64,000 nt of DNA from Candidatus Zambryskiibacteriota bacterium (lineage in GTDB: Bacteria > Patescibacteriota > Minisyncoccia > Phycocordibacterales > DATDWN01), in NCBI GenBank assembly GCA_023267045.1, contig JAHFOB010000002.1:2032-66031 (forward strand). Direction: 5' to 3'. A program made the translations under genes and the position numbers. The stretch's first letter is position 1. Each line of letters starts with the position of its first letter. Positions 9,530 through 58,661 of the stretch are shown here, one piece after another. The notes below the pieces were generated by a model. It saw nothing but the letters and a program-made list of their open reading frames with translations, was not told the origin of the DNA and did not search any database.

Positions 9530-9533
9530 TCAA

Positions 9534-10559: not shown

Positions 10560-10564
10560 TAAAA

Positions 10565-12304: not shown

Positions 12305-12321
12305 AACAAGTTCGAAAATAG

Positions 12322-12358
12322 CTCGCACACTTCGGTGTTCGGGCTATTGCTTTATGTA
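12322..12358 (+). terminator. Terminator hairpin after pyrF
   Basis: AATAGCTCG-cacacttcggtgtt-CGGGCTATT followed by GCTTTATG. Confidence 0.45.
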
Positions 12359-12388
12359 AGAAATATTTTTGATAGTACATTGTATTAG

Positions 12389-12973: not shown

Positions 12974-12976
12974 AAC

Positions 12977-13705: not shown

Positions 13706-13767
13706 CCAAATTTCGGTGAAATAAATTCTTTTTCTTGTTGTATCTATAGGGGTAGAGCCATAATACA

Positions 13768-14157: not shown

Positions 14158-14189
14158 AAATAAATTCTATTATTAATATTCAGTAATTC

Positions 14190-14684: not shown

Positions 14685-14728
14685 AGAATAAATCTCTTAC
14701 TCTCGACGAGATTTATTCTTCAAAAAAT

Positions 14729-15592: not shown

Positions 15593-15611
15593 GAAAGTGG
15601 TAATATATAGG

Positions 15612-15720
15612 ATGAATCCCGTTAGAAATATCGGAGATTCAGTGTTACCACGGTCAGGTTAACTTTAATCATTAACATAAGGAGTTATTATTAAATATAT
15701 GATCTCCTATTTCTAACGGG
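15612..15720 (+). repeat. L-element copy 1: ~107-nt terminal-inverted-repeat element abutting the start codon of 15721
   Basis: ATGA|ATCCCGTTAGAAATATCGGAGAT...ATCTCCTATTTCTAACGGG|ATGAAG; -10-like TAATATATAG immediately upstream. Confidence 0.85.
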
Positions 15721-17253
15721 ATGAAGTTCATAGATAATTTTCTAAACGGCATAACCATGTACAAATTGGTTTTGTACGGACTTTTGGTTTTGGCCGTGTT
15801 TTCTATAGCTCTAAGTTTTGCAGGAATTTTATCGTACAGTCCTCAAAGTTTGTCCAGTTCTTTTATTATTTTGTTAATAGTTTGTTACATAACAAACTAT
15901 CTTTTTTCCAAAGTATTTAGAGTTTCTGTAAATAGTGAATCATATTTCATAACCAGTCTGATATTGTTTTTGATATTGTTTCCTGTAGGTAGTTTATCTC
16001 AACTATGGGTTTCTATTATTGTTGCCACTATAGCAATGGCTTCAAAATATCTTTTGGCAATAAATCAAAAGCATATTTTCAATCCTACCGCTATCGCAAT
16101 TTTTATCATTGGTTTTTTCGGTTATGGTTCGGCCATCTGGTGGATTGGTAGTTCCTATATGATTGTGCCAGTTGTCATTCTCGGTTTTCTAGTTATACGC
16201 AAAGTTCGCCGTTTTGCTTTGTTTTCTTCTTTTCTTCTGGCGGGTGTTGCCAGTATTTCTGTCTTTAGTTTATATCACGGTTTCAACCTAGTTGAAGTTT
16301 TGAAACAAACTTTTCTTTCAGGGCCGATACTTTTCTTCGGCAGTATTATGTTGACAGAACCACTAACGACTCCGCCAAGTGTTGGTCTTCAGGTAGCGTA
16401 TGGCGTTTTAGTCGGAATATTTTTTGGTGCAGAGTTTCAATTTGGCCCATTATATTCTTCACCAGCTCTAGCACTACTTATCGGTAATTTGTTTTCATAT
16501 ATTGTTAGTCCAAGAGCTCATTTAACATTGACTCTGCTTCGCAAAAATAAACTATCCCATGACGTCTATGACTTTGAGTGGAAAATATCTGGTCATAAAA
16601 CAGACAGAAAAATTGGCTTTATGGCGGGTCAGTATATGGAATGGACATTAGCTCACAAACATCCAGATATAAGAGGCAATCGGCGATTTTTTACTCTAGC
16701 TTCCTCTCCGACAGAAGAAAACTTACATCTTGGTATAAAGTTCTACAAAGACTCTAGTAGCTTCAAAAAAGCTCTAAATTCCATGGCTTTGGGTAGTAAA
16801 ATCGTGGCATCGCAAATAGCTGGGTCATTTACACTACCAAAAGACTCAAGCAAGAAGATGGTTTTTATTGCTGGTGGTATAGGTATTACACCGTTCAGAA
16901 GTATTATCAAATATCTGCTCGATAAAAAAGAGGATAGGGAGGCTGTACTTTTCTTTTCAAACAAAACAACAGAAGATATAGTTTACAAAGATATTTTTGA
17001 CGAAGCAGAAAATAAACTTGGGATAAAAACTATTTATGTCATAAACGATATGCAAGGCGGTGTTGAAACTTCAAAAATAAAAGCTGGAATTGTTACAAAA
17101 GAAATGATCGTAGCTGAAGCAACGGATTATAAAGATAGAATTTTCTATATTTCTGGTTCGCACGCGATGGTTGAATCTTTCAAAAACGTTTTACACAAAA
17201 TGGGTGTAAAAAGATCCCAAATCAAAACCGATTTTTTTCCGGGCTTTATGTAG
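15721..17253 (+). CDS. membrane oxidoreductase: polytopic N-terminal domain fused to a ferredoxin-NADP-reductase-type FAD/NAD(P)-binding domain
   Basis: C-terminal RRFFTLASSP (RxYS-type FAD motif), GGIGITPF (NAD-binding) and YISGSHAMV. N-terminal ~280 aa has 8-9 TM helices, with HIFNPTAIA reminiscent of NqrB/RnfD. Confidence 0.6.
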   Translation: MKFIDNFLNGITMYKLVLYGLLVLAVFSIALSFAGILSYSPQSLSSSFIILLIVCYITNYLFSKVFRVSVNSESYFITSLILFLILFPVGSLSQLWVSIIVATIAMASKYLLAINQKHIFNPTAIAIFIIGFFGYGSAIWWIGSSYMIVPVVILGFLVIRKVRRFALFSSFLLAGVASISVFSLYHGFNLVEVLKQTFLSGPILFFGSIMLTEPLTTPPSVGLQVAYGVLVGIFFGAEFQFGPLYSSPALALLIGNLFSYIVSPRAHLTLTLLRKNKLSHDVYDFEWKISGHKTDRKIGFMAGQYMEWTLAHKHPDIRGNRRFFTLASSPTEENLHLGIKFYKDSSSFKKALNSMALGSKIVASQIAGSFTLPKDSSKKMVFIAGGIGITPFRSIIKYLLDKKEDREAVLFFSNKTTEDIVYKDIFDEAENKLGIKTIYVINDMQGGVETSKIKAGIVTKEMIVAEATDYKDRIFYISGSHAMVESFKNVLHKMGVKRSQIKTDFFPGFM

Positions 17254-17540
17254 AAATAAATATTGACTCTATCACACTACTGTATTCTCGTGATGTTTTT
17301 CTTTTTTCTACAATAATATCTGTAAATAGTGAAATATGACTAAAATAGTCGCTTTTTTAGCGATTTTTCGTCTTTTTCTCGTTTCCTATCAATTTTTTTA
17401 TTAATAATTAGCAAAAATACATGATTTTGTGGTGGTCAAGTCTTGCACTTAAAATACTTGAGTGTTATTTTATTGTTAAGAGTGTGTCGTTTTTTTGATT
17501 TAAGTTTTAATAATAAATTTATAAATTAGTTTTTTATAAC

Positions 17541-44692: not shown

Positions 44693-45007
44693 ATGCCTGA
44701 GCACAGGATTGCTATTGCTGAAGACATGGAACGGGATAAATCCAAGTTTCTCAAGTTACTTGAGAAACATGCTGTAGTGTGTCAGTATGATGGGCCGGAG
44801 GAATACATTCGATTTGTACTCGGCAAGTTCACCGACATTGATGTTGTCATTGCTCAACTCAAAGCGGAAGGGGTTTCGTTTGAAGAAGCTTACAACAAGT
44901 CCATGGTCTGGCCGAAGTTAACACCAGCTCCACCTAAGCTAAAGCCGACTCCGCCCAGAAGTTCTTGGTTCTCTAGATTTTTCGGCGCCTTTCATCTTCA
45001 CCGATGA
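44693..45007 (+). CDS. hypothetical protein (104 aa)
   Basis: SD GGGAGG; followed by a 12-bp terminator hairpin GGCGCCTTTCATC...GATGAAAGGCGC. Confidence 0.45.
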   Translation: MPEHRIAIAEDMERDKSKFLKLLEKHAVVCQYDGPEEYIRFVLGKFTDIDVVIAQLKAEGVSFEEAYNKSMVWPKLTPAPPKLKPTPPRSSWFSRFFGAFHLHR

Positions 45008-45054
45008 AAGGCGCTTGTCGTTTATCAAAATTTTTGTTATTATTTTTCTCGATT

Positions 45055-45093
45055 GGGCCCTTAGCTCATCTGGTAGAGCACCTCATTTGCAAT
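45055..45093 (+). other. Left junction (attL-like): 5' part of a disrupted tRNA-Ala(TGC) gene, ending in the core TTTGCAAT
   Basis: GGGCCCTTAGCTCATCTGGTAGAGCACCTCATTTGCAAT gives the acceptor 5' strand, a complete D-arm, the 5' anticodon stem and the anticodon loop UUUGCAA. The sequence after the core (AAATAGGTCTACCCC) cannot complete the tRNA. Confidence 0.75.
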
Positions 45094-45276
45094 AAATAGG
45101 TCTACCCCTTATTAATCAAATATCCCTTAGAATAAGGATAAAATTGATGTAAAACAGTCGACAAGACCACTTCTCTCACAAAACAGGTCACCGGCTCATT
45201 GAATTCATGTTGTTTTGACTCGTGTATTTTGACCAGGAATCCAATGAAATAATAACAACGGTAGGTTGTTATTATT

Positions 45277-46176
45277 ATGAATATACAAATATTGGCTCAG
45301 AAATTTTACGACTATTCATTGTATATGCGTGGTCGCAGACCAGCAACAATTAGACGATATAGACAGGCAATCAACTTGTACTCCAGACTGGCAGGAGTTT
45401 CAGAAATAGAACAAGTGACGGAAGACAATGTAAGACAATTCTTTTTTAATGGAAGAACTAAACGCAACTGGAAACCAAATTCGTTTATTTGTTTCTATCA
45501 TTCTCTGTTAGTATTTTTCAAATGGTGTCTGAATGAAAAGTATCTGACAAAAAATCCAATTGATGATCTTGAAATACCAAAGGTAGAAAAACGGTTGCCG
45601 GCCTGCCTTACCAAGCAGGATGCTTTCAAACTCATTGAAGTTGTTTATAACTATCCGTACGATTATAAATATTTGCGATACAGAAACCATGCTATATTTT
45701 CAACTTTTATTTTCTCTGGTTTAAGAAAGAAAGAGTTGTTGAAATTAAAATATACTGATATTGACCTGGAGAATCTAAGTATATTTGTTAATCAGGGCAA
45801 GGGTGGTAAAGATCGAATAATACCGATATGTAGCACTTTGGCCCAGAGCTTAAAACGTTACTTGGAGGAACGCAAACGACTCAACAAAACATGTCCAGAA
45901 TTCTTTGCATCTCTGAACCGAAATTGTGGATTTACTGATATGGGGCTCCGGGGGTTAGTCTTTAAGATAAGAAAGGCGTCTGGTATAAAATTCACAATTC
46001 ATAAACTCCGACACACCTTTGCAACATTAATGTTGGAAGGTGGTTGCGATATTTTTAGTTTGTCTAAAATGATGGGTCACAGTGACATCAAGACCACAAC
46101 AATTTATCTCTCAGCCAGTGCTAATCATTTAAGGTCGCAGATGATTAAACACCCGTTGAATGATTTGGTAACCTAG
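45277..46176 (+). CDS. tyrosine-type site-specific recombinase/integrase (int1)
   Basis: C-terminal catalytic region HKLRHTFATLMLEGGCDIFSLSKMMGHSDIKTTTIYL (R...HxxR...Y). Confidence 0.85.
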   Translation: MNIQILAQKFYDYSLYMRGRRPATIRRYRQAINLYSRLAGVSEIEQVTEDNVRQFFFNGRTKRNWKPNSFICFYHSLLVFFKWCLNEKYLTKNPIDDLEIPKVEKRLPACLTKQDAFKLIEVVYNYPYDYKYLRYRNHAIFSTFIFSGLRKKELLKLKYTDIDLENLSIFVNQGKGGKDRIIPICSTLAQSLKRYLEERKRLNKTCPEFFASLNRNCGFTDMGLRGLVFKIRKASGIKFTIHKLRHTFATLMLEGGCDIFSLSKMMGHSDIKTTTIYLSASANHLRSQMIKHPLNDLVT

Positions 46177-46192
46177 CTGTCTACTGTTTCTG

Positions 46193-46265
46193 TGGACCCT
46201 GCCGGATTCGGACCGGCGACCTCCGCATTGCAAATGCGGCGCTCTACCAACTAAGCTAAGGGCCC
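46193..46265 (-). tRNA. tRNA-Ala (anticodon UGC), intact, carried inside the island
   Basis: Reverse complement reads GGGCCCTTAGCTTAGTTGGTAGAGCGCCGCATTTGCAATGCGGAGGTCGCCGGTCCGAATCCGGCAGGGTCCA. G3:U70 acceptor pair; anticodon stem CCGCA/TGCGG with loop TTTGCAA. Confidence 0.85.
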
Positions 46266-46364
46266 TTCTTTCAGGACAAACTATAGCAGAATTACATGAA
46301 TTAAGCAAAATGAAAATTTTTACTTAATGCTTAAATATAATTCTATTTTGATAGTATCACTTAA

Positions 46365-46532
46365 TTAATTTTTGTCTTTATGGATTTTGATATACTTCTC
46401 AGTTTCTTCAAAGAGAATATCAAATGCCTTTTGTACTTTACGTTCCTGTTCTGCTTTTTCTTCCGGTGTCTTTGGCTCGACGTAGGTATACGTGATCTTT
46501 AGTCCGTCTGTTTTTGAGGTTCCTTTTTTCAT
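46365..46532 (-). CDS. small charged protein (55 aa), below the ORF-track cutoff
   Basis: MKKGTSKTDGLKITYTYVEPKTPEEKAEQERKVQKAFDILFEETEKYIKIHKDKN. Confidence 0.3.
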   Translation of the reverse strand: MKKGTSKTDGLKITYTYVEPKTPEEKAEQERKVQKAFDILFEETEKYIKIHKDKN

Positions 46533-46560
46533 AGACTGTTAAAGCTTGTAATGGCACCCA

Positions 46561-46974
46561 TCATGGATACACTGTTTTGTTTGGCCGCTCCAGGAGGTGC
46601 GGATTTTTAGTAATCATCTCGTTATAGATGGCCATATCCCGGTCGCAATTCTGTGCAAAGTGGCGTTGAATCTCTGCGGGTCCCATATCCTCTCCGCTAC
46701 CGGCCCCCGCTCCGTATTGCATGTAGTAGCTCAAAGTAATGATGGCGAGGTCCCAATCGATGCCATTTGCGGCGGGACACTCCGGAACTGTGCTCTCGAG
46801 TGCATACGAGTAGAAATAAACCGGTAGTATCACCCCGCTTGACTCCTCATCCGGGCTTGGTGATTCATTGGCTCGGGAGAGAGTTTCTGGAATAGACCCA
46901 TGTTTGAGAAGCAGGGTGCCAGCAACAAGTGCCACCGCAATAACCGCTATGAGAATGTAGGGGGCTTTGTTCAT
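46561..46974 (-). CDS. secreted hypothetical protein, GC-rich
   Basis: Signal peptide; composition differs from the host genes. Confidence 0.45.
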   Translation of the reverse strand: MNKAPYILIAVIAVALVAGTLLLKHGSIPETLSRANESPSPDEESSGVILPVYFYSYALESTVPECPAANGIDWDLAIITLSYYMQYGAGAGSGEDMGPAEIQRHFAQNCDRDMAIYNEMITKNPHLLERPNKTVYP

Positions 46975-46978
46975 GTTT

Positions 46979-47872
46979 TTATTTTTTGTATGCTGTTTTA
47001 TTATATTTTAATCTTATGGCCTTAAGCATTGATTCTGATTCGCCAATTATTCTTTCTGACGAATGAGTGATGGTACGATAATTCATTCTCTCCATCATTT
47101 CACTGTCTACTCCAATATATGAATCACGTTCAAGTATCCAACCAGCAAGAAGTAATCGATTCTTCGATAACGGCAAAGTCACATCAACATCTTTATATGC
47201 AAATCCCGGGAGACTCCCAAATGCATTTGGACCATATTTTTTAATTGCCTCTGGTCTTAACAAGACAATTGGATCATCAGATGTCACATAGCCTCCACTT
47301 GGGGATTCCCATATAGACCATTTCATATCAAATATTATTTGAGAGAGATGTGGAAGTTGGGCGAGGATACTCAATGCATGTTCTTCTTTGTAGTTCTCTA
47401 AATATTCTTCAATATCGCTCATGTGAATCGCTTTACCACTGCTTGGGGTTGCGGCTGCAATTCGCCTTGCTTCTGGGTTATCTTCGTATCGTTGTCTCCA
47501 TTCCTCCATACTTTTTTTCATGGATAAAACCATGCGATGCATACTCTCCCTATGTGGTCTTGTTCTAAGAAAAAGTGCTGCAATAAATACAGAAACTTTT
47601 GCTCGTTCTTCATCTGTCAGAAACAAATTTTTTGTTATCTTTTTTTCAAATATGGCCGCATAAGTACCCTCGATATTGGCTAATGTATCTTCAACAAATA
47701 AACTCTTATCACCGTTCTTTAATGTGACGGTATAGAAATGGCTTTCTACCAGAATGTTCTCGGGTTTTGTTTTGAAAATATTATCCTTCGTATCAAGCAC
47801 CCAAACGAAACCATCACTGTCAGTGAAATTTTGTAGGTAGCATCTTGGTATTGTGTGGTGACGTTTTTTCAT
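46979..47872 (-). CDS. DUF4238 domain protein
   Basis: N-terminal HHTIPRCYLQNF matches the DUF4238 signature (HxVPqfYLrxF). Confidence 0.55.
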   Translation of the reverse strand: MKKRHHTIPRCYLQNFTDSDGFVWVLDTKDNIFKTKPENILVESHFYTVTLKNGDKSLFVEDTLANIEGTYAAIFEKKITKNLFLTDEERAKVSVFIAALFLRTRPHRESMHRMVLSMKKSMEEWRQRYEDNPEARRIAAATPSSGKAIHMSDIEEYLENYKEEHALSILAQLPHLSQIIFDMKWSIWESPSGGYVTSDDPIVLLRPEAIKKYGPNAFGSLPGFAYKDVDVTLPLSKNRLLLAGWILERDSYIGVDSEMMERMNYRTITHSSERIIGESESMLKAIRLKYNKTAYKK

Positions 47873-47928
47873 ATAATTGAGATCATTTTACACTAAAATA
47901 GACCTCATTTAAGGTTACCAAAATATCA

Positions 47929-47957
47929 TTGACAGTATAGGTAAAAAGGTGTATAAT
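47929..47957 (+). promoter_or_regulatory. Consensus sigma70 promoter for 48036..48887
   Basis: TTGACAgtataggtaaaaaggtgTATAAT (17-bp spacer); SD CAAGGAGTAAGGAAATG further downstream. Confidence 0.6.
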
Positions 47958-48035
47958 TGTCAGCAGAAATTACCGTTCTCGTGAGTTATTCCGAGGACTA
48001 GAATCCCGTAACGATCTTTCACAAGGAGTAAGGAA

Positions 48036-48887
48036 ATGAAGATTCTCGCAGAAGCTGATACGGCACAGGTTCTTACTGGTCTGTTCCATCAGATCGGTGA
48101 CCAGAACTGCTACGTCGTGCAGATGGAACAAAGACGAGACACGTACGATACGTTGCAAAACGTGTCAGGACTCGACCTCGTTCTCAACGTCGCTCCGGAA
48201 GGTACACCCGTCGTCATGCTTGGATGGATGACGCCGAAAATGTATACCGACCTCAAGCCACAGGAGTGGTTCGCAGCGATGGGCTACCCGAACGTGATGT
48301 TCCGTCGCCTACCGGCAACACTGGAAGACGTTGTGAGTGCGCTTGAAGAAGTGAAGATTGGCAGTCGCCAGTCAGATCCTCTTGCAATTGCACTTCTCGG
48401 CGTCGATCAGATGAACTCGACTGTCAGAGTCCTTAACCACGATCTTTTGTCCGCTGAACGAGATTCAGAGCGGATGATTCGATGGGTTGAGCGAGCTCGG
48501 GCAGCATTCGGCGACAAGCCCCAAGCCGAACTGATTTCCTTGGTGAAAGATGCCGGGAAATTGGGAGGTCTTCCTGGTCCACTCACGGGTCAAATGTTCC
48601 CTGATGTCTGCGTGGATGTCGAGGGGACACTTCTGGTCGACGGGCAGATTCGTTCCGAAGTTATCGCTTTGGCACAAGAGAAAGCGAACGGCGGACCGAT
48701 CACTGTTTGGACTGGTGGGAACATCTACGACCTTACCAAGCAACTTCGTGGTTTGGGAGTGACCCACAAGATTACCTCCAAGCACACCATGAAGGATGCG
48801 ACTGTTCGAGTGGTGATCGACGACCAGCCGGAAGAAGCGTTCAAGAGCAACTACGGCGTCGGTTACGAAAAGTACATTCAGATCTAG
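48036..48887 (+). CDS. hypothetical protein, strongly GC-rich, with a possible C-terminal HAD-like phosphatase motif
   Basis: GC visibly ~55%. VCVDVEGTLLVDGQ resembles HAD motif I (DxDGT) and VVIDDQPEE motif IV; the N-terminal 170 aa are unknown. Followed by a bidirectional terminator (AGCCCCA...TGGGGCT, TTTTT). Confidence 0.45.
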   Translation: MKILAEADTAQVLTGLFHQIGDQNCYVVQMEQRRDTYDTLQNVSGLDLVLNVAPEGTPVVMLGWMTPKMYTDLKPQEWFAAMGYPNVMFRRLPATLEDVVSALEEVKIGSRQSDPLAIALLGVDQMNSTVRVLNHDLLSAERDSERMIRWVERARAAFGDKPQAELISLVKDAGKLGGLPGPLTGQMFPDVCVDVEGTLLVDGQIRSEVIALAQEKANGGPITVWTGGNIYDLTKQLRGLGVTHKITSKHTMKDATVRVVIDDQPEEAFKSNYGVGYEKYIQI

Positions 48888-48964
48888 TGTCTGCACTTAG
48901 TAGACACAAAAAGAAAGGAGAAAACACAAAGCCCCAAGCAAACACGCTGGGGCTTTTTCAATTA

Positions 48965-49729
48965 TTATTTAATACCAATTATTAAATCATCTCTTGTGTC
49001 ATCTGGTATTAGAATGTAAACATTTTTAAATCCAGCGACTTTCATTTGTTCAACAAGTTCTTCTTTTGTTATGAGATAACTTTTTCTTACTACCTCTCCT
49101 TCACTCAAATCACTTTCAACTCTCGTGGTCCATGTGTTTATTCTTTTACCCCAGTCAAATGTTGATTTCCAAATAGTGTGATATTGCTCACCATTTCTTT
49201 CTGAATCAAAAGTCCTATCAGAACCTTTGTAACTTGGTACATAATGTTTACCTAATCCTATGACAACGAGTCCATTATCCTTTGTAGCTTCAAAAAAACT
49301 TTTCAAACACATTTGTATTCTTGGAATAATGTTTTCTAATTTCTCCGGAGTTTCTCCACCCATCCAACCGTCCATATATACGAAGGAGTTATCTGCATTT
49401 ACAATCACATCAAATTTTTCAGATATTTTATTACCTAATTCCTGCCAAGAAGAATGATAAGCTGATATTTCCATTCCCTCTGATTTAAATTTCTCCTGTA
49501 ATTCCTTAGCGTATGTTTCGTTTCCATCGGTAACACTTAGATTTGTAAATCCTAACTTATATAAATCGAAGGTAGGAAAACCTGTGCCTCCAGCAGTATC
49601 CAGTATTTTAAGATTTTTATCTTTCAAAACAAAAGCTAGAGCTTTTGAATAATTAGTACGATACTGCTCGTCATGTAAAGCATTTCCTGCAATTTCCCAA
49701 ACTTGTGATTGTGTGAGTTCTTTTTTCAT
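48965..49729 (-). CDS. class I SAM-dependent methyltransferase
   Basis: Motif I ILDTAGGTGFPT, motif II/post-I acidic residue, VIVNADNSFVYM. Confidence 0.8.
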   Translation of the reverse strand: MKKELTQSQVWEIAGNALHDEQYRTNYSKALAFVLKDKNLKILDTAGGTGFPTFDLYKLGFTNLSVTDGNETYAKELQEKFKSEGMEISAYHSSWQELGNKISEKFDVIVNADNSFVYMDGWMGGETPEKLENIIPRIQMCLKSFFEATKDNGLVVIGLGKHYVPSYKGSDRTFDSERNGEQYHTIWKSTFDWGKRINTWTTRVESDLSEGEVVRKSYLITKEELVEQMKVAGFKNVYILIPDDTRDDLIIGIK

Positions 49730-49732
49730 AAT

Positions 49733-50263
49733 TTAATTGTTTTTAATAAATGGCTCTACATTCTTTATGATTTCTTGAATGTCATTATATTTGTGGTCTT
49801 CACCTGGTAATTCTAACAAATTATAATTTTTAACACCTGATTTATTTAACACTTCCCTTAAAACAGTAGAAGATGTTGTTCTATCATTTGTTTGTTGAAT
49901 AAAGAGACTCGGAATAGCAAAGTTATTTAATAACTCATCCATGTCCCACCCATTTTCCTTACTCCATTCATAAGCTGTGCCGGCAAAAATACATTTGATT
50001 GGTTTTATATACCCATTGCGTATAGCTTGAAGCGTAAGTGCGACTCCTACAGATTTGGCAAAAATTACAAGATCATTTTTTCCTTCCGCTAATTTTTTTA
50101 AGTTTTCTACTTCTGACCTAATATCAACATCTTCTTTATAATCTTTCCAATTTTCATAATAAAGAATCTCTACTGAATTGAACAAACCTCCGAATGTTTT
50201 TCGGATATTTTCTACCCATTCTTTATTATAATCACTGTAGCCCCCAAGGATAATAAGATTCAT
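49733..50263 (-). CDS. small alpha/beta-fold serine hydrolase-like protein (YdeN/RBBP9-like size)
   Basis: 176 aa; LVIFAKSVGVAL contains a G/A-x-S-x-G nucleophile elbow. It sits 4 nt from each neighbour in the operon. Confidence 0.4.
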   Translation of the reverse strand: MNLIILGGYSDYNKEWVENIRKTFGGLFNSVEILYYENWKDYKEDVDIRSEVENLKKLAEGKNDLVIFAKSVGVALTLQAIRNGYIKPIKCIFAGTAYEWSKENGWDMDELLNNFAIPSLFIQQTNDRTTSSTVLREVLNKSGVKNYNLLELPGEDHKYNDIQEIIKNVEPFIKNN

Positions 50264-50267
50264 GTAT

Positions 50268-52103
50268 TTAATTTAGAGTTGGGTTATACACCTTTTCAAA
50301 CGCATATATACCAATAATCTCCACCAAAACATCATTTATATTGCCATAAAATGCCTCTGTTTGCATTCTTGCTTCATCGTTACCCAAAAGACCTTCAATG
50401 AACTCTTTTTTGTATACACTCTGAAGAAGTGGTGATGACAACATACTTTCCTTATTTTTTTCAATGATGTCAAAAAGTTCCTCACTATAATTCTTCTTTT
50501 TTGGTCCAGGACTTTTTACTCTGTAGACAATCTCATGTGGTAATTTATCCTCCAACATTTTTCTGAATAAATGTCGTCCAGAAGTAGTAGATGCGATATG
50601 AGTTTTATAATCACATTTGTCCGCAAACTCTACGAGTAGTCTATTCACAGTAGGGACCCTGACCTCAATTCCTGAATGCATTCCGAATTTATCTTCACTC
50701 GCAAGCATTGTTGGTAACATATTCTCCCTTATAAATGCCGTGATAAGTTTCTGTTGATTTTCCTGCTGTCCGATGTCACCAAAAACACTTTTTACGTATT
50801 CTGTTGAAGTTAATTCTGCGTCCTTAGTAAATTGATCCGAAAGACCTGATAGTTTTAATGCGTTGAGTTTCTTAAAATAGTCTATGACATTTTCAGTGTT
50901 AAATACTCCTTCTCTGTAAAAAATGCTCATCCAATAATCGAGAGGATAATAACCATAAAAGACTTCGTCAGCACCTTGTCCATTAAAACAAACTTTCAAC
51001 CCAGCTTTTTTAACGGCTTGGTAGTTTTTTAGCTTGGTAATATAACGAATATCCACCACTGGTTCTTCTCTGGCAATAGTCGCTTCCATGAAATCCTCAA
51101 GAGTAAATGGGTCATCAAGGTTTAGTTCGTGCGGTTCAAAAACATTTCCGTATTTCTCAGAAAGAATTCCTAACAATTTTTGAGTATACTCTAAATCTGT
51201 CTTCTCACCTCGTTTATTAAAGTAGTATGTAAACGTTGGTATTATTTTCTCCTTCTCTACTAGGTATGGAGTAGCTAGTGTTGAAATAAAAGTACTGTCT
51301 ATACCACCAGAGAGAATCATTCCGATTGGTACATCACTTCGTGTTTCCCAATGAATAGCTTTGTCTGCAATAACACTGAAATCGTTCTCGATTTTTGAAA
51401 TATCTTCTGTAATGGACGTTTTAAAATCTGGAATGTAATAAGCCTCCTTATTTTTTACAGCTCCACTTGAATCTAAAATTAAATAATTACCTGGTTCTAA
51501 GCTCTGAATACTTTTGAAAAAAGACTTTGTTTTCTGACTACCAATAAAGCGATCGAGAAATAGGTGAGTCTGTAACATTGAATGATCCAGTTGTGCAGGA
51601 ACATAGTTCAGTATGGAAGCAATTTCAGATGAAAAAATAAACTTTTCTTTATCGTGATAATAGAAGAGGGGTTTTACACCAACTCTATCTCTAGCAACAA
51701 TATATTCTTTTTTCTGGGAGTCATAGAAACAGAAGCCGTATATTCCGTTTACTTCTTGCAAGAAATCAATTCCTTTATGGGTCAGTCCAGCAATTAAAAC
51801 CTCAGTGTCCCCAGTTGTTTTAAATTCATAGCCTTCTTTTCTCAAGTCCTCTCGTAATTCTATGAAGTTATATATTTCACCATTGAACACAAGCCAATTG
51901 TCATGATAATGGAATGGTTGCATAGCTTCAATTTTCAAATCTTGAATTGATAGCCAGTTAAAACCAAATAAACAGTTTTCGTTGATCTTCTCTACCAAAG
52001 AACCATCCGGACCCCTGTGTTTTGATTTTTCTAGAGCACGTTCAAATACCTCTTTGTCTAGGTTTGATTGGTTTTCTGAGATTATGCCGATTATTCCACA
52101 CAT
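50268..52103 (-). CDS. asparagine synthetase B-like glutamine amidotransferase (class-II GATase plus PP-loop synthetase)
   Basis: N-terminal MCGIIGII (Cys2 nucleophile); PP-loop ILSGGIDSTFIS. Confidence 0.8.
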   Translation of the reverse strand: MCGIIGIISENQSNLDKEVFERALEKSKHRGPDGSLVEKINENCLFGFNWLSIQDLKIEAMQPFHYHDNWLVFNGEIYNFIELREDLRKEGYEFKTTGDTEVLIAGLTHKGIDFLQEVNGIYGFCFYDSQKKEYIVARDRVGVKPLFYYHDKEKFIFSSEIASILNYVPAQLDHSMLQTHLFLDRFIGSQKTKSFFKSIQSLEPGNYLILDSSGAVKNKEAYYIPDFKTSITEDISKIENDFSVIADKAIHWETRSDVPIGMILSGGIDSTFISTLATPYLVEKEKIIPTFTYYFNKRGEKTDLEYTQKLLGILSEKYGNVFEPHELNLDDPFTLEDFMEATIAREEPVVDIRYITKLKNYQAVKKAGLKVCFNGQGADEVFYGYYPLDYWMSIFYREGVFNTENVIDYFKKLNALKLSGLSDQFTKDAELTSTEYVKSVFGDIGQQENQQKLITAFIRENMLPTMLASEDKFGMHSGIEVRVPTVNRLLVEFADKCDYKTHIASTTSGRHLFRKMLEDKLPHEIVYRVKSPGPKKKNYSEELFDIIEKNKESMLSSPLLQSVYKKEFIEGLLGNDEARMQTEAFYGNINDVLVEIIGIYAFEKVYNPTLN

Positions 52104-52107
52104 ATAT

Positions 52108-54252
52108 TTATATAATTTTAATTACACCTGAGTCTGCATTTACTTCTACCTTATCTCCATCTTTTAAAACTTTTGTCGCTATTTTTGTCGCAATGATACA
52201 GGGTTTATTAAGCTCTCGAGCAATTATGGCCGCATGACAGGTAACACCTCCTTCATTAGTGATTATAGCAGAAACTTTAGATAGGATCTGAGTAAATTCT
52301 GGTCGTGTCATAGATGTAACCAATATATCTCCATCAACTATTTTATGAAAATCATTTCGAGATAATACTATCTTTACTGGACCAACTACTTTCCCAGGCA
52401 TCGCAGAGACGCCTTTTATTGTTTTTACATTGTCGCCAACTTCAACATTTTTAACAATTGCTTTCCATTCATCGTGAGATATATCTATCAAGCCATCATG
52501 AGTTACTTCGGCAAATCTTACACCCCCATAGTTTTTTAATGTCTCATTCTTATTCTGTTCAAACTCCTCTACAGTAGACATCACCGCTGTTTCTCGAGAA
52601 ATTTTATACTTACTACACTCTTGAATAAGATAGCGATCTAATAAACCATCAACAATTAAATTAGACTTCTTCCGTTCGTCTCGCATCATGGTCAAAAAGT
52701 CTATCCATTCCAACATAGTGTTTGGTTCCTGTAATTCAACCTCAGAATAACTAACATCTTCCTTCAAAATCTCGTTTTTTCTTTTTATAAAATCTTCTTC
52801 GGTCGTTCTGTATTCTCCAGAGTAGTCATTTTGAAGCCATGAATACTTGAGAGTATGCTCAGTTACTTTATCTTCAAAAGACTCCGACTCATTAAAAATC
52901 TGCTTCAACTCATACTTCTCTTTTTGTGCAAAAGAAAAGTATTTCTTTTCGAGTGTAGAAATATTAATTCCTTCATTTTTGATGTATTTGTCAAAAGCAT
53001 AATCCAATGAGTAACCAATACCTATGGCAACACTATAAATCGCATCAAATTCTTGGTAAAAATCTTTTATATCACTAACAGTTTTATTTTTCAGGTCCTT
53101 GTAGTTTCTCTTCTCGAGTCTTTTATTTAACTCCAAGAGTTTTTGAGCTAAATCAAAAAGATAATTTTCAAATACGTGATCATTTTTCAGTAACAAATCA
53201 AAAAAGAAATCACCGTATTCTTCAAATGAGCTTTCAGGGGCATCAACGATCGTTGTCGTTCCATAACGAAATTTTACAAACCAACCACCCATTAAATACT
53301 TGTTATTATATTTTTGTTTTGGAGCATTTGCGGTAGAAGAATAGAAAAACGGGTATATTGGATTTTCAAAAGAAACAAACTTTTCTAAAGTTGTAATAGG
53401 TCTACTCTGTAGAATATAAAACTTGTCTTTTTCAAAAGCCCATTCAATATCACATGGAAAACCGAAATGGTTTTCAATTTGAATGACGATATCAGACAAC
53501 TCCATGATTTGTTCATCAGTTAGAGTTGGTTTATCAATAGGATTACTTTCGAGAATAGTTTTTGTATCTTTTTTTACCACATAACTATCGGGAGTAACCG
53601 ACCCAGATACGATAGCTTCACCAAGTCCATGCACTGCCTCTATAATGAGTTGATTTTTATCTTGCGTAACTGGGTGAACAGAGAAAGCAACGCCAGATAC
53701 AACGCTCTGTATCATTTTTTGTACGACAACGGCTACTGATATTTGAGTAGTGTGTAAACCTTTTTCAAAACGATAGAAAATGGCACGAGGAGTAAAAAGC
53801 GATGCCCAGCAATGCTGTATTTTTTCCACTAGATCTTTCTCGCTGATATTTAGAAAACTATCAAGTTGTCCTGCCCATGCATGTTCCTGACCATCTTCAC
53901 TTGTAGCTGAAGAACGAACGGCAACATATTCCGCATTGAGATTTTTGAATTGTTCTATAACCTCTGTTGCTATGTCCTCAGGTATTACAGCATTTTTAAT
54001 TAAACCTTGGATTTTCTCCGAAGCATTCTCGACTGCATGTATTTCTTTGTGATTAACAGCATCTAGAATTGAATCTATTTTTTGAGTTAAATCTGTCTCG
54101 TTGAGGAAGCGATCAAAAGTGCTGGAAAGCACAACAAAACCTTCTGGGACAGAAATGCCTAGTTGGACCATCTCGCCCAAAGAAGAACCTTTTCCGCCAG
54201 CGATATCAACATCATTTTTGTTAATCTTTTGGAATGGTCGAATTAGCTCCAT
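52108..54252 (-). CDS. PEP-utilising enzyme family protein: PPDK/PEP-synthase N-terminal ATP-grasp domain plus phospho-His swivel domain (rifampicin-phosphotransferase-like architecture)
   Basis: N-terminal GGKGSSLGEM..GISVPEGFVV (PPDK_N). C-terminal TNEGGVTCHAAIIARELNKPCII is the PEP-utilisers mobile-domain His motif. No C-terminal TIM-barrel domain is present. Confidence 0.7.
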   Translation of the reverse strand: MELIRPFQKINKNDVDIAGGKGSSLGEMVQLGISVPEGFVVLSSTFDRFLNETDLTQKIDSILDAVNHKEIHAVENASEKIQGLIKNAVIPEDIATEVIEQFKNLNAEYVAVRSSATSEDGQEHAWAGQLDSFLNISEKDLVEKIQHCWASLFTPRAIFYRFEKGLHTTQISVAVVVQKMIQSVVSGVAFSVHPVTQDKNQLIIEAVHGLGEAIVSGSVTPDSYVVKKDTKTILESNPIDKPTLTDEQIMELSDIVIQIENHFGFPCDIEWAFEKDKFYILQSRPITTLEKFVSFENPIYPFFYSSTANAPKQKYNNKYLMGGWFVKFRYGTTTIVDAPESSFEEYGDFFFDLLLKNDHVFENYLFDLAQKLLELNKRLEKRNYKDLKNKTVSDIKDFYQEFDAIYSVAIGIGYSLDYAFDKYIKNEGINISTLEKKYFSFAQKEKYELKQIFNESESFEDKVTEHTLKYSWLQNDYSGEYRTTEEDFIKRKNEILKEDVSYSEVELQEPNTMLEWIDFLTMMRDERKKSNLIVDGLLDRYLIQECSKYKISRETAVMSTVEEFEQNKNETLKNYGGVRFAEVTHDGLIDISHDEWKAIVKNVEVGDNVKTIKGVSAMPGKVVGPVKIVLSRNDFHKIVDGDILVTSMTRPEFTQILSKVSAIITNEGGVTCHAAIIARELNKPCIIATKIATKVLKDGDKVEVNADSGVIKII

Positions 54253-54344
54253 AATTAAGCAAATTTTAACACATTTTCAACCTTTTTGTCCCAACAAAAA
54301 ATGGCGGTAACCCATGACGGGACCGCCGTTTAATGTTATCTCCT

Positions 54345-55040
54345 CTATCTCCGTGATGTCATAAGAAATGACGATATCAGTTCCGATGCATCAAATTTGG
54401 AACATGACTCTGCTTCCTGTAGCCATCGTTCTCGTTCAGTTGGACTGGCAATACGTTCGAATATAAGGGACGTCAGCAAATCCTTTTGTTTTGCTGTAAT
54501 TGGTTCATCTTCACCACCTTCGTATTTCTTGGGAAAGAAATTGCTGGAGCCATTGTTTACACTCTGGACCGTTTCCTCCTGAATTACTTCAGGTGAAATG
54601 TCTTCGAGATCGCTAGTAAAGATGTCTGAGAGTCCTGTGGAGCGAATGACGGCATCTATGAAAGCTGATTTTTGCGCCATCTTCACTGTCTTGTTGGCAT
54701 CGTTGCCATGACTCTTTAGCACTGCCGCACCACGACCCTGACCTACCGTTTCCCCGGACCGAGTGAGTGTGCAGACATATGCTAACAACCCCTCTACACT
54801 CCTAAATGACTCTATGGTATCGGCATCCTTTGTGAATGTGGCAACTAGCGAGTATATCGTGGCTAGTTTCTCTGCACCGGCTTTGCCGAGCGACTGACGA
54901 CCCTTGATAGTGTAGTAGTCTCGATTCTCCACAAGCTTTGGGAGTATCTTCTGAATGAAGTAATCCCGTTTCTGCAACAGTGAATCAACTCCAGTTTTGA
55001 ATTGGGCGATGCTATCTGAAGCAATGAGTGCTGTATTCAT
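54345..55040 (-). CDS. hypothetical protein, possibly a phage-type ssDNA-annealing/recombination protein (weak)
   Basis: 231 aa; overlaps the upstream gene by ATGA and has a terminator at 54262-54300. Its resemblance to RecT/Rad52-like annealing proteins is uncertain. Confidence 0.35.
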   Translation of the reverse strand: MNTALIASDSIAQFKTGVDSLLQKRDYFIQKILPKLVENRDYYTIKGRQSLGKAGAEKLATIYSLVATFTKDADTIESFRSVEGLLAYVCTLTRSGETVGQGRGAAVLKSHGNDANKTVKMAQKSAFIDAVIRSTGLSDIFTSDLEDISPEVIQEETVQSVNNGSSNFFPKKYEGGEDEPITAKQKDLLTSLIFERIASPTERERWLQEAESCSKFDASELISSFLMTSRR

Positions 55041-55354
55041 GATGTTTTATTCTTTTCAACTTGTTTGTAATAGAACAGGAACACGTTTCGCTTAATGCGT
55101 TTGACGATATTCCCGTTATTGTCCTTCACTTCGACAAAAGTGACGGATCGAATAGCTCTCTCTCCTTTACGAACTACATAACCAAGAGATAGCCATTTAG
55201 CGAACGTAAGAGTGTTGTGGTGTGGGTCGTACTTTTCGACCTCGTCATCACCCCAGCGACTCTTTATTTCCGAAGCGACCAGATCGTAGGTAGTTTCGGA
55301 GCCGGTATAGCCTGAGATTGGCGGACCAGCCATTATTTGCTTGAAACTTTTCAT
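55037..55354 (-). CDS. ArdC N-terminal-like (DUF1738) ssDNA-binding domain protein
   Basis: FAKWLSLGYVVRKGERAIRSVTF matches the ArdC_N core (W...GY.V+KGEKG). Confidence 0.45.
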   Translation of the reverse strand: MKSFKQIMAGPPISGYTGSETTYDLVASEIKSRWGDDEVEKYDPHHNTLTFAKWLSLGYVVRKGERAIRSVTFVEVKDNNGNIVKRIKRNVFLFYYKQVEKNKTS

Positions 55355-55625
55355 GTATGTCTATGCATGTGCAACGCATACCTCGACTATGGAATGCAAA
55401 GGGCTTGTGTTGTGTTAGTAATTAAGTCCTTCATAAATCAAAGTGGTAATGAGTTGTGGGGTGGCTGGAGGGGTGATTTGTCATTTTTAAGGACAGAGAT
55501 AGGGACCGTATGATAAGGGACTCGAATGGGTCCCTTTTTGGTTTCAGAAATCAATGGTCATAAAAAATTTTCTGCAAAAAATTCCAAAATGAGTAAGTCA
55601 TAAAGGACTGAGATACGATTGAGGT

Positions 55626-56192
55626 ATGACTACTAAAGAAAGACATTTCGTAGAAGACTGCTTTTTTCTTAGGCCTAAGGATGCCTTAATGGGCCTTAGG
55701 GTAGATAAGATAGTGGGAAAAGAGAATACTAATACTACTAATAAGCCGGGAGAGCTCTATCTATGGTTTGAAGAGGACCTAATTGATCCAAATATTGTAC
55801 ATGTCAGCGTGAATGGCAATGAGCCCCAGAAGCTTGTTCTGGAGTACATTAATGCTACTTATGGTCAAAGATGCTATCTCATTTGTAATTGTGGTCACAG
55901 AGTCGCCAAATTGCATTTAACGCCACATGGTAAAGAATTTCGCTGCAGAGTATGTCTAAATTTGAGATACCGGATTTCAGTAACAAACTCTAGGTCTATT
56001 GCTGGTGGAGCTTTACATAACTTCAGCAGGATAAGTAAGTTAATGGAAATGCGAGAAAGAATCGATAGGATATTTTACAGAGGTCGTTTTACTAAGAGAT
56101 ACAAGCGTTTTTTGATGTTGTGCGGTAAGGCAGGGCTCAATAGTGAGGTTGATCGTGCGCAAAATCTACTTGAAACAATCAAATCTCATTAG
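55626..56192 (+). CDS. zinc-ribbon containing hypothetical protein
   Basis: CNCGHRV...CRVC 4-Cys cluster. Confidence 0.45.
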   Translation: MTTKERHFVEDCFFLRPKDALMGLRVDKIVGKENTNTTNKPGELYLWFEEDLIDPNIVHVSVNGNEPQKLVLEYINATYGQRCYLICNCGHRVAKLHLTPHGKEFRCRVCLNLRYRISVTNSRSIAGGALHNFSRISKLMEMRERIDRIFYRGRFTKRYKRFLMLCGKAGLNSEVDRAQNLLETIKSH

Positions 56193-56740
56193 ATTAATAC
56201 AAAGCCAGTAGATTACCGATTTTTATAATGTGTAGAACTACCAAAAGGTCTATTTGAGGGGTAAAAGACCCAACCCAGCCGGACGTTTTCTATTTTCTAG
56301 AATATTTTCTCTCTATTTCGGGTTATTTCCCTTGACAAATGGAAAAGAAGGGAGTACATTTATCAGCAGGAGGAGCAAAGGTTTCTCCGGCAGAACAATA
56401 AAATCTGGTTTTATGGAGGGCAGGAGGTTAAATCAATTACCTCGCCCCGGTAGCACTTATAAGCAAGCTACTTAAATTGATTTCTATCATAAGAGGCCTA
56501 CATACTCTTACGGTTAGTAACGAAAGCGACCCTTTGAGACGTTAGTCGGGTCAAAGCGTAGTAGGCAACGCAAACAATGTCCCCAGAAGTGATGTGTTTA
56601 TGAGTTAATCTCGTAAATAGATCATTAAGCGGGGACTTTTTCATTTCCGCATATATTGCATTGTCGGTGAAGTCATTATCACCAATGCAGTCGCCTCAGT
56701 CTGAAGCGGCTCCTCTACTGTAAACCAAGGGTCACTACAC

Positions 56741-57748
56741 TTGGTAAATGAGACATACATGCGAACTAAAAAGAAGGATGTAGCTGTTATCCAAAAAGAT
56801 CCGCTGAATTCGCTAAATCCAGATCGTCTGGATGAGCTTTTTGATCAGTTTATGACGGAAAAGAAATATGTGACACTACTTCGCCCTGCTACCTTGATTG
56901 GGTATAGAGCATCGTATGACCTTTTTAGAAAACTCTCGTATGTCACAATTGATTCACTCACCACAAAATCGCTGACTAATTTTTTCAAGGAGATGCAAAC
57001 CAGAACTAGAATTGTTGGTAAGGGGGTTGAGAAAATTGGTGTTAAGGATTCAACCATAGCAACATATGCTATGAAGCTTAATGTATTTTTTGAGTGGTTA
57101 GTTCAAGAAAAACATATCATTGAAAATCCAATCAAAAAATTGCCAAAATACAGACCAGTCTATGATGACAAAAGAGCCTTACGCAAAGGAGATATCGAAT
57201 ATATCAGAACAGCAATTGAAAACCACTCCACTACTTTGCTACAAAAGAAGAGAGATCAAACGATGCTCGCTGTACTTCTGTTTTGTGGGATAAGAAGAGG
57301 AGAACTACTTGGCTTGAAAGTGACTGATATCGACCTGGAAAAAAGGCAACTGATAATTAGAGGCGAAACATCGAAATCAAAGCGTACGAAAATTTTACCG
57401 ATTACCAATAAAATATTAGCAATGGCTTTACAAGATTATTTGAATGAGAGAAAAAATTACAAAACTCCGCAATTATTTGTTTCGTTAAATACTGACAAAG
57501 GACTAAGCTACGAAGGATTCAAACATTGGATTGACAGGTTGGAACTATTGTCTGGTGTAAAATTTCATTCGCATCGATTTCGTCATACCTTTGCTACAAA
57601 TCTTGAAGCTAACGATGTTGGCATTATAAAGATTTCAAAACTTATGGGTCATAAAGATACAAGAATGACTCAAGTGTATCTTCGCTCGATGGGATCAGAG
57701 GACTTAGGACCAGAGATGAGTACCCTGACATTTGACAACTTGATATAA
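56741..57748 (+). CDS. tyrosine-type site-specific recombinase/integrase (int2), reading toward the right junction
   Basis: HSHRFRHTFATNLEANDVGIIKISKLMGHKDTRMTQVYL catalytic motif. Confidence 0.85.
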   Translation: MVNETYMRTKKKDVAVIQKDPLNSLNPDRLDELFDQFMTEKKYVTLLRPATLIGYRASYDLFRKLSYVTIDSLTTKSLTNFFKEMQTRTRIVGKGVEKIGVKDSTIATYAMKLNVFFEWLVQEKHIIENPIKKLPKYRPVYDDKRALRKGDIEYIRTAIENHSTTLLQKKRDQTMLAVLLFCGIRRGELLGLKVTDIDLEKRQLIIRGETSKSKRTKILPITNKILAMALQDYLNERKNYKTPQLFVSLNTDKGLSYEGFKHWIDRLELLSGVKFHSHRFRHTFATNLEANDVGIIKISKLMGHKDTRMTQVYLRSMGSEDLGPEMSTLTFDNLI

Positions 57749-57930
57749 GTCTAATTTTTTAATATAATATGAGCACATTATTAGTTAATTTGCAGTCTGT
57801 TGTTGTAAATATTTCATGGACTTTCCTAGGTAGGAAACAGGTCATTGCAACGGTATGAATTTAAGGAACCAAATCACAATTTTACCGCTTAAATAAAGGA
57901 TATTTCAAGAGAAATAGGGGTACTAGTTTC

Positions 57931-57972
57931 TTTGCAATGAGGGGGTGGCAGGTTCGAGTCCTGTAGGGTCCA
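57931..57972 (+). other. Right junction (attR-like): 3' part of the disrupted tRNA-Ala gene, beginning with the core TTTGCAAT
   Basis: TTTGCAATGAGGGGGTGGCAGGTTCGAGTCCTGTAGGGTCCA gives the 3' anticodon stem, variable loop, T-arm GCAGG-TTCGAGT-CCTGT and acceptor AGGGTCC-A. Confidence 0.75.
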
Positions 57973-57984
57973 CTGACAACACAA

Positions 57985-58010
57985 ACTATCCCGCCTGCGC
58001 GGGATTTTGT
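57985..58010 (+). terminator. Terminator of the ancestral tRNA-Ala gene
   Basis: CCCGCctgcGCGGG followed by ATTTTGTG. Confidence 0.45.
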
Positions 58011-58373
58011 GCGTCAGTGGAAGACAGAGTCATGTTTTTATACCAATAAAAACGGACGAGTCAGGGTCGTGGAAATTTTGTTTTGACGAAAATAAAATTA
58101 TTCCTGACCACAAAATGTATTAGGAAAATAGTGGCTGACCCCATTTTCCCTGACCCCATTTTCCCCATCTTCTAAATAAATCATTGCTATGGTATTGTTT
58201 TGTTACAACTAAATAAGTTAAAGTAGCCTAAACCAAGTAATTGGCATGGTGAAAAGCCCAGTAACGAATAAAAAACCCATCATGCGGGCTTGTCGTTACT
58301 GGCCATATCGGGAAACCGGTATGGGGAGCTTCGGCTCCCACCCTGTGGTGGGCTTTTTGTATAAATAAAAAAT

Positions 58374-58661
58374 ATGGAAAACGAATCTATTGAAAAAGAT
58401 GTATCTATTGTATCCAAGAAAGATAAGTGGTTTGCTGGTTATATAGTAACAGGATTAATTTTTAATGCGTCACAAATTTTTGACAGAACAACATATGACG
58501 GGTTCTTTATTATTGTAGTATCAATAATGTGTGGGTATTTTTATCACAGATTAAAGAATAAAATAAAATTAAAAAATGAGGGAAATAGAATTATTGTTAC
58601 CTTCTTGATTCTTGAATTAATTGCTGGTTTTTTAATAGGAGCTATAACACGTTTTTTCTAA
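58374..58661 (+). CDS. small membrane protein (95 aa)
   Basis: Three TM segments. Confidence 0.4.
   Translation: MENESIEKDVSIVSKKDKWFAGYIVTGLIFNASQIFDRTTYDGFFIIVVSIMCGYFYHRLKNKIKLKNEGNRIIVTFLILELIAGFLIGAITRFF

Follow-up and report, generated by a model that had tools for sequence, protein, structure and literature searches.

Elements that integrate into tRNA genes are described, in reviews and in the Islander paper, as reconstituting the gene they enter (PMC8371274, PMC4383910). This is not the case in tRNA-dependent lysogeny, known from the actinobacteriophages Fionnbharth/K4, Cluster L and Gaia, in which a core of only 8–10 bp leaves the tRNA unrestored and lysogeny depends on a phage-encoded tRNA of the same anticodon (Guerrero-Bustamante & Hatfull, mBio 2024, PMC10865867). 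In phage Gaia the core is 8 bp long and the tRNA lies downstream of int; the same study cites the earlier Lactobacillus johnsonii prophage Lj965 and poses the prevalence of the phenomenon as a question (PMC10865867). Here we analysed a 64-kb stretch of contig JAHFOB010000002.1 (assembly GCA_023267045.1, Candidatus Zambryskiibacteriota bacterium), referred to as the window, in which an island of 12,837 bp splits a tRNA-Ala(UGC) gene; coordinates are positions in the window, position 1 being its first letter. With a probability of roughly 0.8, we regard it as a non-viral island that integrated at the anticodon loop without restoring its target, and whose own tRNA replaces the lost gene. At the sequence level this is carried by the split and its duplicated core, the failure to reconstruct the gene, the intact element tRNA, a conserved att architecture that recurs in other loci, an attP junction in a relative, and horizontal transfer.

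The 5' part of the host gene (acceptor strand, D-arm and 5' strand of the anticodon stem; 45055–45085, + strand) is 100% identical to intact genes of other genomes and runs into the left copy of the core TTTGCAAT (45086–45093, +), which spans the anticodon loop and one further base, the first of the 3' stem, and forms the attL crossover region. The right core copy, in attR (57931–57938, +), leads into the 3' part (57939–57972, +), which supplies what is left of the 3' anticodon-stem strand together with the variable loop, T-arm, acceptor strand and discriminator A. The two halves, GGGCCCTTAGCTCATCTGGTAGAGCACCTCATTTGCAAT (45055–45093) and TTTGCAATGAGGGGGTGGCAGGTTCGAGTCCTGTAGGGTCCA (57931–57972), thus enclose the island at 45094–57930. 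Joined at the shared 8-mer (45055–45085 plus 57931–57972), they give 73 nt that ARAGORN calls as tRNA-Ala(tgc), with all stems paired and the G3:U70 pair in place, as the original prediction had held, and that are identical at 73/73 positions to intact tRNA-Ala genes of at least 12 other Patescibacteria genomes. BLAST with tRNAs from other loci aligns 45054–45093 with tRNA positions 1–40 and 57931–57973 with positions 32–74, both at 100%. On this evidence, the match of the joined halves to intact tRNA genes cannot be chance. The core 8-mer is itself common in the window (six copies on the + strand, four on the - strand), and the case therefore rests on the tRNA match and not on the repeat.

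Neither junction regenerates an intact gene, as an island of the restoring class I would at one of them. The sequence that follows the core on the left, AAATAGGTCTACCCC, cannot form the anticodon stem, and with GGGGTACTAGTTTC preceding the core on the right, the tRNA cannot be completed by either flank. ARAGORN and Rfam reported no tRNA and no half-gene at the two junctions of the window. ARAGORN listed two tRNA genes in the window, one of them a tRNA-Ala(tgc) at 46192–46265 on the minus strand; of the expected program output, the intact minus-strand gene was thus recovered and the two half-hits were not. A promoter-like site of the host gene (TTGTCG-17-TATTAT with TG; 45015–45043, +; consensus scan) now reads into the 5' half, the left arm and the first recombinase gene, int1, which it presumably drives. 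Behind the 3' half, a GC-rich hairpin, ATCCCGCCTGCGCGGGAT, followed by TTTT (57988–58005, +; read from sequence) probably served the host tRNA gene as its terminator before the insertion; the terminator scan flags the minus strand only.

The intact tRNA-Ala(UGC) of the element (46193–46265, -; Rfam 70.5 bits) follows int1 after 16 nt and is encoded on the other strand, in agreement with the original prediction of a divergent copy in this position. It carries G3:U70 and an unusual T-loop, UCCGAAU, and is identical to the split host tRNA at 60/73 positions, with stems matched within each gene; the stem CCGCA/UGCGG and C55 set it apart from the host copy. Among three Ala(UGC) element tRNAs and the host gene, 84/84 pair cells are paired and five pairs show compensatory double changes, while G3:U70 is invariant; the element tRNAs thus look functional. 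Upstream of the gene, a promoter-like TTGCTT-17-TATAGT (46280–46308, -; read from sequence, below the consensus-scan threshold) is kept as TTGCTT-17-TATATT in the related locus L209 (other loci compared here are designated by L numbers). We infer that the element tRNA is expressed and needed. The TCCGA T-loop, with C55, replaces TTCGA/TTCAA in several element-borne or integrase-adjacent tRNAs (window 46193–46265, L231 9895–9967, L141 100–172).

The island ends in two non-coding arms of near-equal length, 183 nt from the left core to int1 (J1, the P' arm; 45094–45276, +) and 182 nt from the second recombinase gene, int2, to the right core (J2, the P arm; 57749–57930, +). The motif AAACAGGTC occurs only twice in the 64 kb, at 45181–45189 and 57835–57843, in the same orientation and each time 87 nt from a core copy; in J1 it sits within the conserved block GACCACTTCTC..AAACAGGTC..GGCTC. 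A near copy, AAATAGGTC, abuts the left core at 45094–45102, and the GGGGTACTAGTTTC that abuts the right core forms an imperfect dyad with the start of J1. The reconstructed attP, J2-TTTGCAAT-J1, accordingly has imperfect inverted core-type sites, GTACTAGTTTC and AAATAGGTCTAC, on either side of the core, together with symmetric distal copies of AAACAGGTC. The predicted junctions are ...GGTAGAGCACCTCATTTGCAATGAGGGGGTGGCAGG... for attB, ...GGGGTACTAGTTTCTTTGCAATAAATAGGTCTACCCC... for attP and host 5' half-TTTGCAAT-GCGGAGGTCGCCGG for an inverted form; GGGGTACTAGTTTCTTTGCAATAAATAGGTCTACCCC was not found in the window with up to 3 mismatches allowed.

Both arms adjoin genes for Xer-like tyrosine recombinases, one at each end of the island and both on the + strand: int1 (299 aa; 45277–46176; Pfam PF00589 and PF13495) and int2 (329–335 aa; 56741–57748), which share 31% identity. 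The catalytic R...HxxR...H...Y is kept in both (R150, H242, R245, H268 and Y277 in int1; R185, H278, R281, H304 and Y313 in int2), and the lysine motif is unambiguous in int1 only (K175). By NCBIfam, int1 is XerA/XerC/XerD-like but below every curated cut-off, and both proteins fall far short of the XerC/XerD thresholds: int1 reaches 166.7 and 166.2 bits where the XerC and XerD equivalogs require 335 and 330, and int2 reaches about 100 bits. Paired tyrosine recombinases are familiar from XerC/XerD and from TnpA/TnpB of Tn554. Like these, int1 and int2 are two paralogous recombinases that are co-inherited and have complete active sites, and the analogy suggests a heteromeric reaction by the two proteins. 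Unlike XerC/XerD, they score far below the equivalog cut-offs, lie at the island ends, are not the housekeeping pair and target an anticodon loop rather than dif. The original prediction commented neither on the significance of the right-end recombinase nor on the published phage precedent (PMC10865867).

From these features we propose that the island entered by tyrosine-recombinase site-specific recombination, with the anticodon loop of tRNA-Ala(UGC) providing the one crossover site. The attP J2-TTTGCAAT-J1 would share only the 7–8-nt anticodon-loop core with the host gene, and integration would yield attL (5' half-core-J1-int1) and attR (int2-J2-core-3' half), neither of which encodes a tRNA, since outside the core attP is free of tRNA sequence. 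The element tRNA-Ala(UGC), which has its own promoter-like site, would then take over decoding. The reaction would be catalysed by int1 and/or int2, co-inherited paralogues with complete catalytic residues, and precise excision would restore the host gene.

Comparison with other loci strengthens the case for tyrosine-recombinase integration into the anticodon loop. Homologues of int1 number more than 2200 at E < 1e-20, many of them about 70% identical and many on contigs of 1.1–1.4 kb; none above 30% identity was found in IMG/VR. In metagenome loci the family adjoins tRNAs of many identities, and the non-restoring architecture recurs in many metagenomes on tRNA-Ala(UGC), tRNA-Ala(GGC) and tRNA-Thr(GGU). 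The element in L135 (7.7 kb, core ATGGCAT) splits a tRNA-Ala(GGC) and carries an intact opposite-strand tRNA-Ala(GGC) as well as an int2 orthologue (50%) at its right end, and both junctions are present for tRNA-Thr(GGU) targets in L127 and L125 (core ATGGTAA) and in L231 and L234 (core TTGGTAA(T)). In these five loci the orphan halves join into a perfect cloverleaf, the sole exception being one C-A mismatch in L234, and an intact tRNA of the same anticodon lies inside the element in all five and in L209 and L233. The last two repeat, in two other host contexts, the order 5' half-TTTGCAAT-AAAT(A/G)GGTCTA-int1-inverted tRNA (int1 96% and 85% identical to that of the window). J1 is 77–85% identical to that of the window in L209 and L233 and 86% in L205–L208, and the distal motif-to-core spacing of 86–90 nt is found in L135, L125 and L127. 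Palindromic cores (TTGCAA, CTTAAG, CCATGG) were considered as a rule of the family and set aside, as they sit at different places with respect to the loop in different tRNAs and may be coincidence.

The two recombinase genes are paired in at least 13 loci. They occupy the same ends in the same orientation in the window and in L125, L127, L131, L135, L231, L234 and L236, and they are adjacent across attP in L128, L140, L143 and L147. L232 is a tandem array whose middle junction, J2-TTGGTAAT-J1, is exactly the predicted attP; its 9.4-kb element is present in two copies (621–18943) and in one copy in L231 (10001–18943), from the same study and chromosomal site, which is evidence of recent activity of that element. 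An un-integrated attP-like arrangement for tRNA-Lys(CUU) occurs in L130 and L134. In L140 and L143 the attP contains a 3' tRNA half, that is, these relatives are of the restoring type; classical and non-restoring forms therefore coexist in one family, the latter as a variant. Transfer between hosts is indicated by L205–L208 (four samples), in which int1 is 93% and J1 86% identical to that of the window while UvrC and Ddl reach only 44–50%.

The island shares with tRNA-dependent lysogeny all three of its sequence-level features, namely tyrosine-type integration into an attB within a tRNA gene, a short core without a rebuilt tRNA, and an element tRNA of the same isotype and anticodon; it further resembles Gaia in its 8-bp core and in the tRNA downstream of int. 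It differs in being non-phage, in its paired Xer-like recombinases at opposite ends and in its Patescibacterium host, and the need for a cognate tRNA, shown by experiment in the phages, is here presumed. Classical tRNA islands with the anticodon-loop sublocation (Williams 2002; PMC4383910; PMC8371274) likewise have a tyrosine recombinase gene by att, a crossover in the 7-nt loop flanked by the symmetric stem, and a duplicated core, as found here at both ends; however, nothing beyond the core is shared with the host gene in our island, and the restoring-type kin belong to the same integrase family (L140, L143). The layout of L125, L127 and L131 resembles the tRNA-Thr(GGU) locus of Caldiarchaeum subterraneum, where an orphan 5' fragment precedes a short insert that encodes a recombinase and, beyond it, an intact tRNA-Thr(GGU) with an intron (Sugahara et al. 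2012, PMC3293823). That locus is archaeal, with protein-spliced introns and a pNOB8-like recombinase, and has been interpreted as a way in which introns are gained and genes become split (PMC3293823). The 37-kb and 10-kb elements in tRNA-Cys of Anabaena variabilis (bioRxiv 10.64898/2025.12.09.693284) and the tycheposons (bioRxiv 10.1101/2020.12.28.424599) are also cargo islands at tRNA genes, with the anticodon loop as probable crossover and orphan tRNA pieces that pile up by successive integrations, but they carry partial tRNAs, and their integration produces a functional hybrid gene.

The original prediction further suggested that the present arrangement might be the product of an int1-mediated inversion. 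Such an event would have followed a tRNA-restoring integration, with recombination between the core of the restored tRNA and a second, inverted core leaving an orphan 5' half and an inverted tRNA. The host 5' half and the internal tRNA are indeed inverted repeats flanking int1 (45055–45102 and 46218–46265; 48 nt, 81% complementary), as was claimed and as would be expected of an invertible switch, the TTGCAA centre of the core is palindromic, and tRNA pieces beside int1 occur in both orientations (an inverted 3' half in L128 and L129, an inverted 5' half in L144, a further arrangement in L048). However, an inversion is not needed to explain the locus. The compensatory pairs match host half to host half and element half to element half, whereas a hybrid of host 5' and element 3' parts has a U-C mismatch in the anticodon stem; the core-AAAYAGGTCTAC junction, followed by int1, is kept in relatives with a directly oriented replacement tRNA; the tandem array of L232 shows J2-core-J1 to be attP; and a single orientation is seen in the few contigs read with int1 at 85% or above (L124, the ENA contig described below, for which this rests on gene layout, L205–L209 and L233). 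We therefore consider an inversion very unlikely. A composite origin, in which a small module of int1 and tRNA and a larger int2 island entered the same tRNA gene by chance as unrelated elements, would fit the location of the integrase genes at opposite ends, the uneven GC of the island (0.32–0.51) and the int1 of L130, which has no detectable int2 within 13 kb. It is scarcely more probable than the inversion, since the pairing, orientation and end positions of int1 and int2 recur across relatives, the repeat unit of L232 holds both genes, and no third, non-tRNA core junction exists inside the island.

Least probable of all, to the point of being negligible, is an assembly chimera or a split tRNA of the Nanoarchaeum type with trans-spliced halves. 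Metagenome assemblies do break at tRNA sequences, as the contig ends illustrate, and the sequences after the 5' half and before the 3' half are complementary over 7 bp (UACCCCU/AGGGGUA). Yet the junctions are reproduced by independent assemblies of several samples, samples unrelated to these show the same design, the host is bacterial, and the flanks are recombinase arms conserved together with integrase genes; a Nanoarchaeum-type gene would have a long complementary leader and trailer and no intact counterpart, whereas here the complementarity is 7 bp only and an intact gene of the same anticodon is present. A more serious alternative, though still improbable, is a genuine insertion with a dispensable island tRNA, another tRNA-Ala(UGC) gene in the genome (e.g., in an rRNA spacer) making complementation and dependence superfluous. 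Only 64 kb of the genome are in view, so that a second such gene may exist elsewhere, and the T-loop of the element tRNA is atypical: C at position 55 occurs in only 4/122 tRNA-Ala(UGC) sequences collected, two of these four being this element's own tRNA, and could signal impaired function. On the other side, a tRNA of the same anticodon travels with the element in every non-restoring locus with enough sequence, across three target tRNAs, the element tRNAs show compensatory evolution, nested remnants show earlier element tRNAs that survived to be targeted next, and a cognate tRNA was experimentally required in mycobacteriophages (PMC10865867). Besides the limited view and the T-loop, three further points weigh against a non-restoring integration with tRNA replacement. 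Family searches found no lambda-type arm-binding domain in int1 or int2, which leaves the reading of the distal AAACAGGTC copies unaccounted for; the palindromic core centre leaves the orientation control of recombination unexplained; and sequence searches recovered neither an empty site, i.e., an intact gene with these exact flanks, nor a circular form of this island.

The junctions themselves are documented outside the assembly studied here. DNA of this locus is shared by the Logan runs SRR14366760 and SRR14366756 and by the ENA assemblies ERZ27279563 and ERZ27297709. The Logan contig L124 (run SRR14366760, 1202 nt) begins inside the 5' half, crosses J1 and int1 and reaches the end of the inverted tRNA, and in gene layout the ENA contig ERZ27297709, a separate assembly, covers the left flank through the DUF4238 gene, including the left junction, int1 and the inverted tRNA. 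The right flank of the island is reproduced in L210, L211 and L212. Short contigs stop inside tRNA sequence, as expected because community members share tRNA sequences. A scan for the 5' half, with one genome per species, returned 119 loci, nearly all labelled Patescibacteria, Paceibacteria or Parcubacteria: the gene is intact without an integrase nearby in 113, cut off at the locus end in five and split in one (L048), which is also the only one with int1/int2 homologues nearby. An intact gene is therefore the rule, and occupied sites are rare. Viral contigs scanned for the same 5'-half pattern yielded only unrelated tRNA arrays.

The original prediction also regarded the island as hard to lose because it complements the tRNA it destroys. 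This is not supported as stated: if the island were excised precisely, the host would regain a gene with the wild-type sequence known from other genomes, so that the element is not addictive in that sense. Dependence could arise only via imprecise loss or decay of the orphan halves, and nested remnants in relatives suggest such decay. Nested orphan halves bracket the current element in L125 (9418–9565 and 13290–13385), L205 (3770–3930) and L236 (6550–6650), with two 5' halves in each and, in L125, also two 3' pieces. The older 5' halves in L205/L208 and L236 have a palindromic hairpin insert in the D-loop. The nesting points to successive insertions, in which an earlier tRNA persisted after its element was gone and was itself hit by the following one.

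The replacement tRNA-Thr(GGU) of many relatives has an insert of about 190–220 nt between anticodon positions 36 and 37 (L125 9685–9953; L127 9692–9962; L131 9685–9955; L236 ~6780–7050; L238 ~6325–6590; also L137, L138 and L152). The insert adopts a compact group-I-like consensus fold, with a conserved U preceding the 5' splice site and a 3'-end G conserved in 6/6 aligned sequences (checked by hand); an Rfam search with the ~220-nt inserts gave no group I match even at E <= 1. As the insert interrupts the ATGGTAA core, the gene would be a non-target for the same integrases. A broader interpretation, which we offer as tentative, is that the island family (more than 2200 int1 homologues; Patescibacteria and possibly Bacteroidota) systematically kills the resident tRNA and installs its own, and that some element tRNAs, through a core-interrupting group I intron, are immune to the next insertion. 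Serial replacement of tRNA genes by mobile-element copies is supported by the nested orphan halves in L125, L205 and L236.

Pairs of int1 and int2 were also observed on bins outside the Patescibacteria: L048 (JAEUVX010000015.1, 'Flavipsychrobacter sp.'), L238 (QQUB01000620.1, 'Bacteroidetes bacterium') and L236/L237 (labelled 'Simkania sp.'). L238 also encodes a Por_Secre_tail protein, so that the family may truly reach Bacteroidota. The neighbourhood of L236 resembles those of the Patescibacteria loci L131 and L231, and its label may therefore be a binning error. The layout of L048 differs, with a terminator-like hairpin after the 5' half, which is divergent from int1.

Between the element tRNA and int2 lies the cargo (46365–56475), which contains several unknowns. 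It further includes a DUF4238 protein (a PADLOC candidate defence protein; 46979–47872), a methyltransferase, a hydrolase-like protein, an ArdC-N-like fragment, an asparagine-synthase-like amidotransferase and a PEP-synthase/Rph-like phosphotransferase. PADLOC and PHROGs matched only DUF4238 and two families of unknown function, and family searches including PHROGs detected no phage structural or replication families among the island proteins. An open reading frame (ORF) of 283 aa without a family match (48036–48887) lies in a 1-kb stretch of 51% GC, compared with 32–43% in the rest of the island and the host. Defence-like cargo is frequent in relatives (L238 11744–14162, L236 11825–12358, L231 10975–17054, as in the window at 46979–47872), with families comprising an OLD-family nuclease plus UvrD helicase (Gabija-like), HEPN_AbiV, KAP NTPase, Imm_superinfect, SocA_Panacea and DUF4238.

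The right-flank protein (58374–58661) was found only on island-bearing or truncated contigs, and neither the left-flank ORF (44693–45007) nor int2 has an exact match on record. No close shared flanks were found among the genome loci, the best being those of L046 at 68–73% nucleotide identity and rearranged. In L046 (334–4900), the closest genome relative found (UvrC 72%, Ddl 67%), uvrC-ddl lies on the other side of an intact tRNA-Ala and is inverted relative to the window, which suggests rearrangement around this tRNA gene within one lineage. Directly downstream of the host 3' half, the non-coding segment 57995–58115 is 74–91% similar to tRNA-Ala neighbours in L073, L086, L046, L017, L122 and L082, is duplicated in L046 and L073, and has no match in Rfam. 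A short direct repeat, CTGACCCCATTTTCCC, occurs twice at 58137–58170, between this conserved region and a LOOT RNA (RF03000) at 58225–58339, 253 nt to the right of the island. LOOT RNAs also lie inside the related elements L127 (11226–11348) and L131 (13975–14098), the three copies scoring 80–87 bits, and may travel with these islands or their remnants. A role of LOOT as the usual neighbour of tRNA-Ala was rejected, as none of 17 loci with an empty tRNA-Ala site contains it, and so was that of a leader of ORF95/S49 genes, as no such genes follow it in L127 or L131.

A literature search found no publication describing this island family. The principle is already known; new here is its non-viral, dual-recombinase form in candidate-phyla radiation bacteria, a large and previously undescribed island family that extends the phage strategy. 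tRNA-dependent lysogeny was shown only in 2024 and only in actinobacteriophages, and the logic of the island is the same in another setting: non-viral cargo islands, several with defence-type genes, in candidate-phyla bacteria, with Xer-like pairs and at least three target tRNAs for the non-restoring form. Candidate-phyla bacteria tend to have small genomes and few tRNA genes. The compact pair of attP and integrase could serve as a genetic tool where few or none exist now. Overall, these islands offer a concrete route to the horizontal replacement of tRNA genes and a natural test of the old idea that introns shield tRNA genes from integrases.

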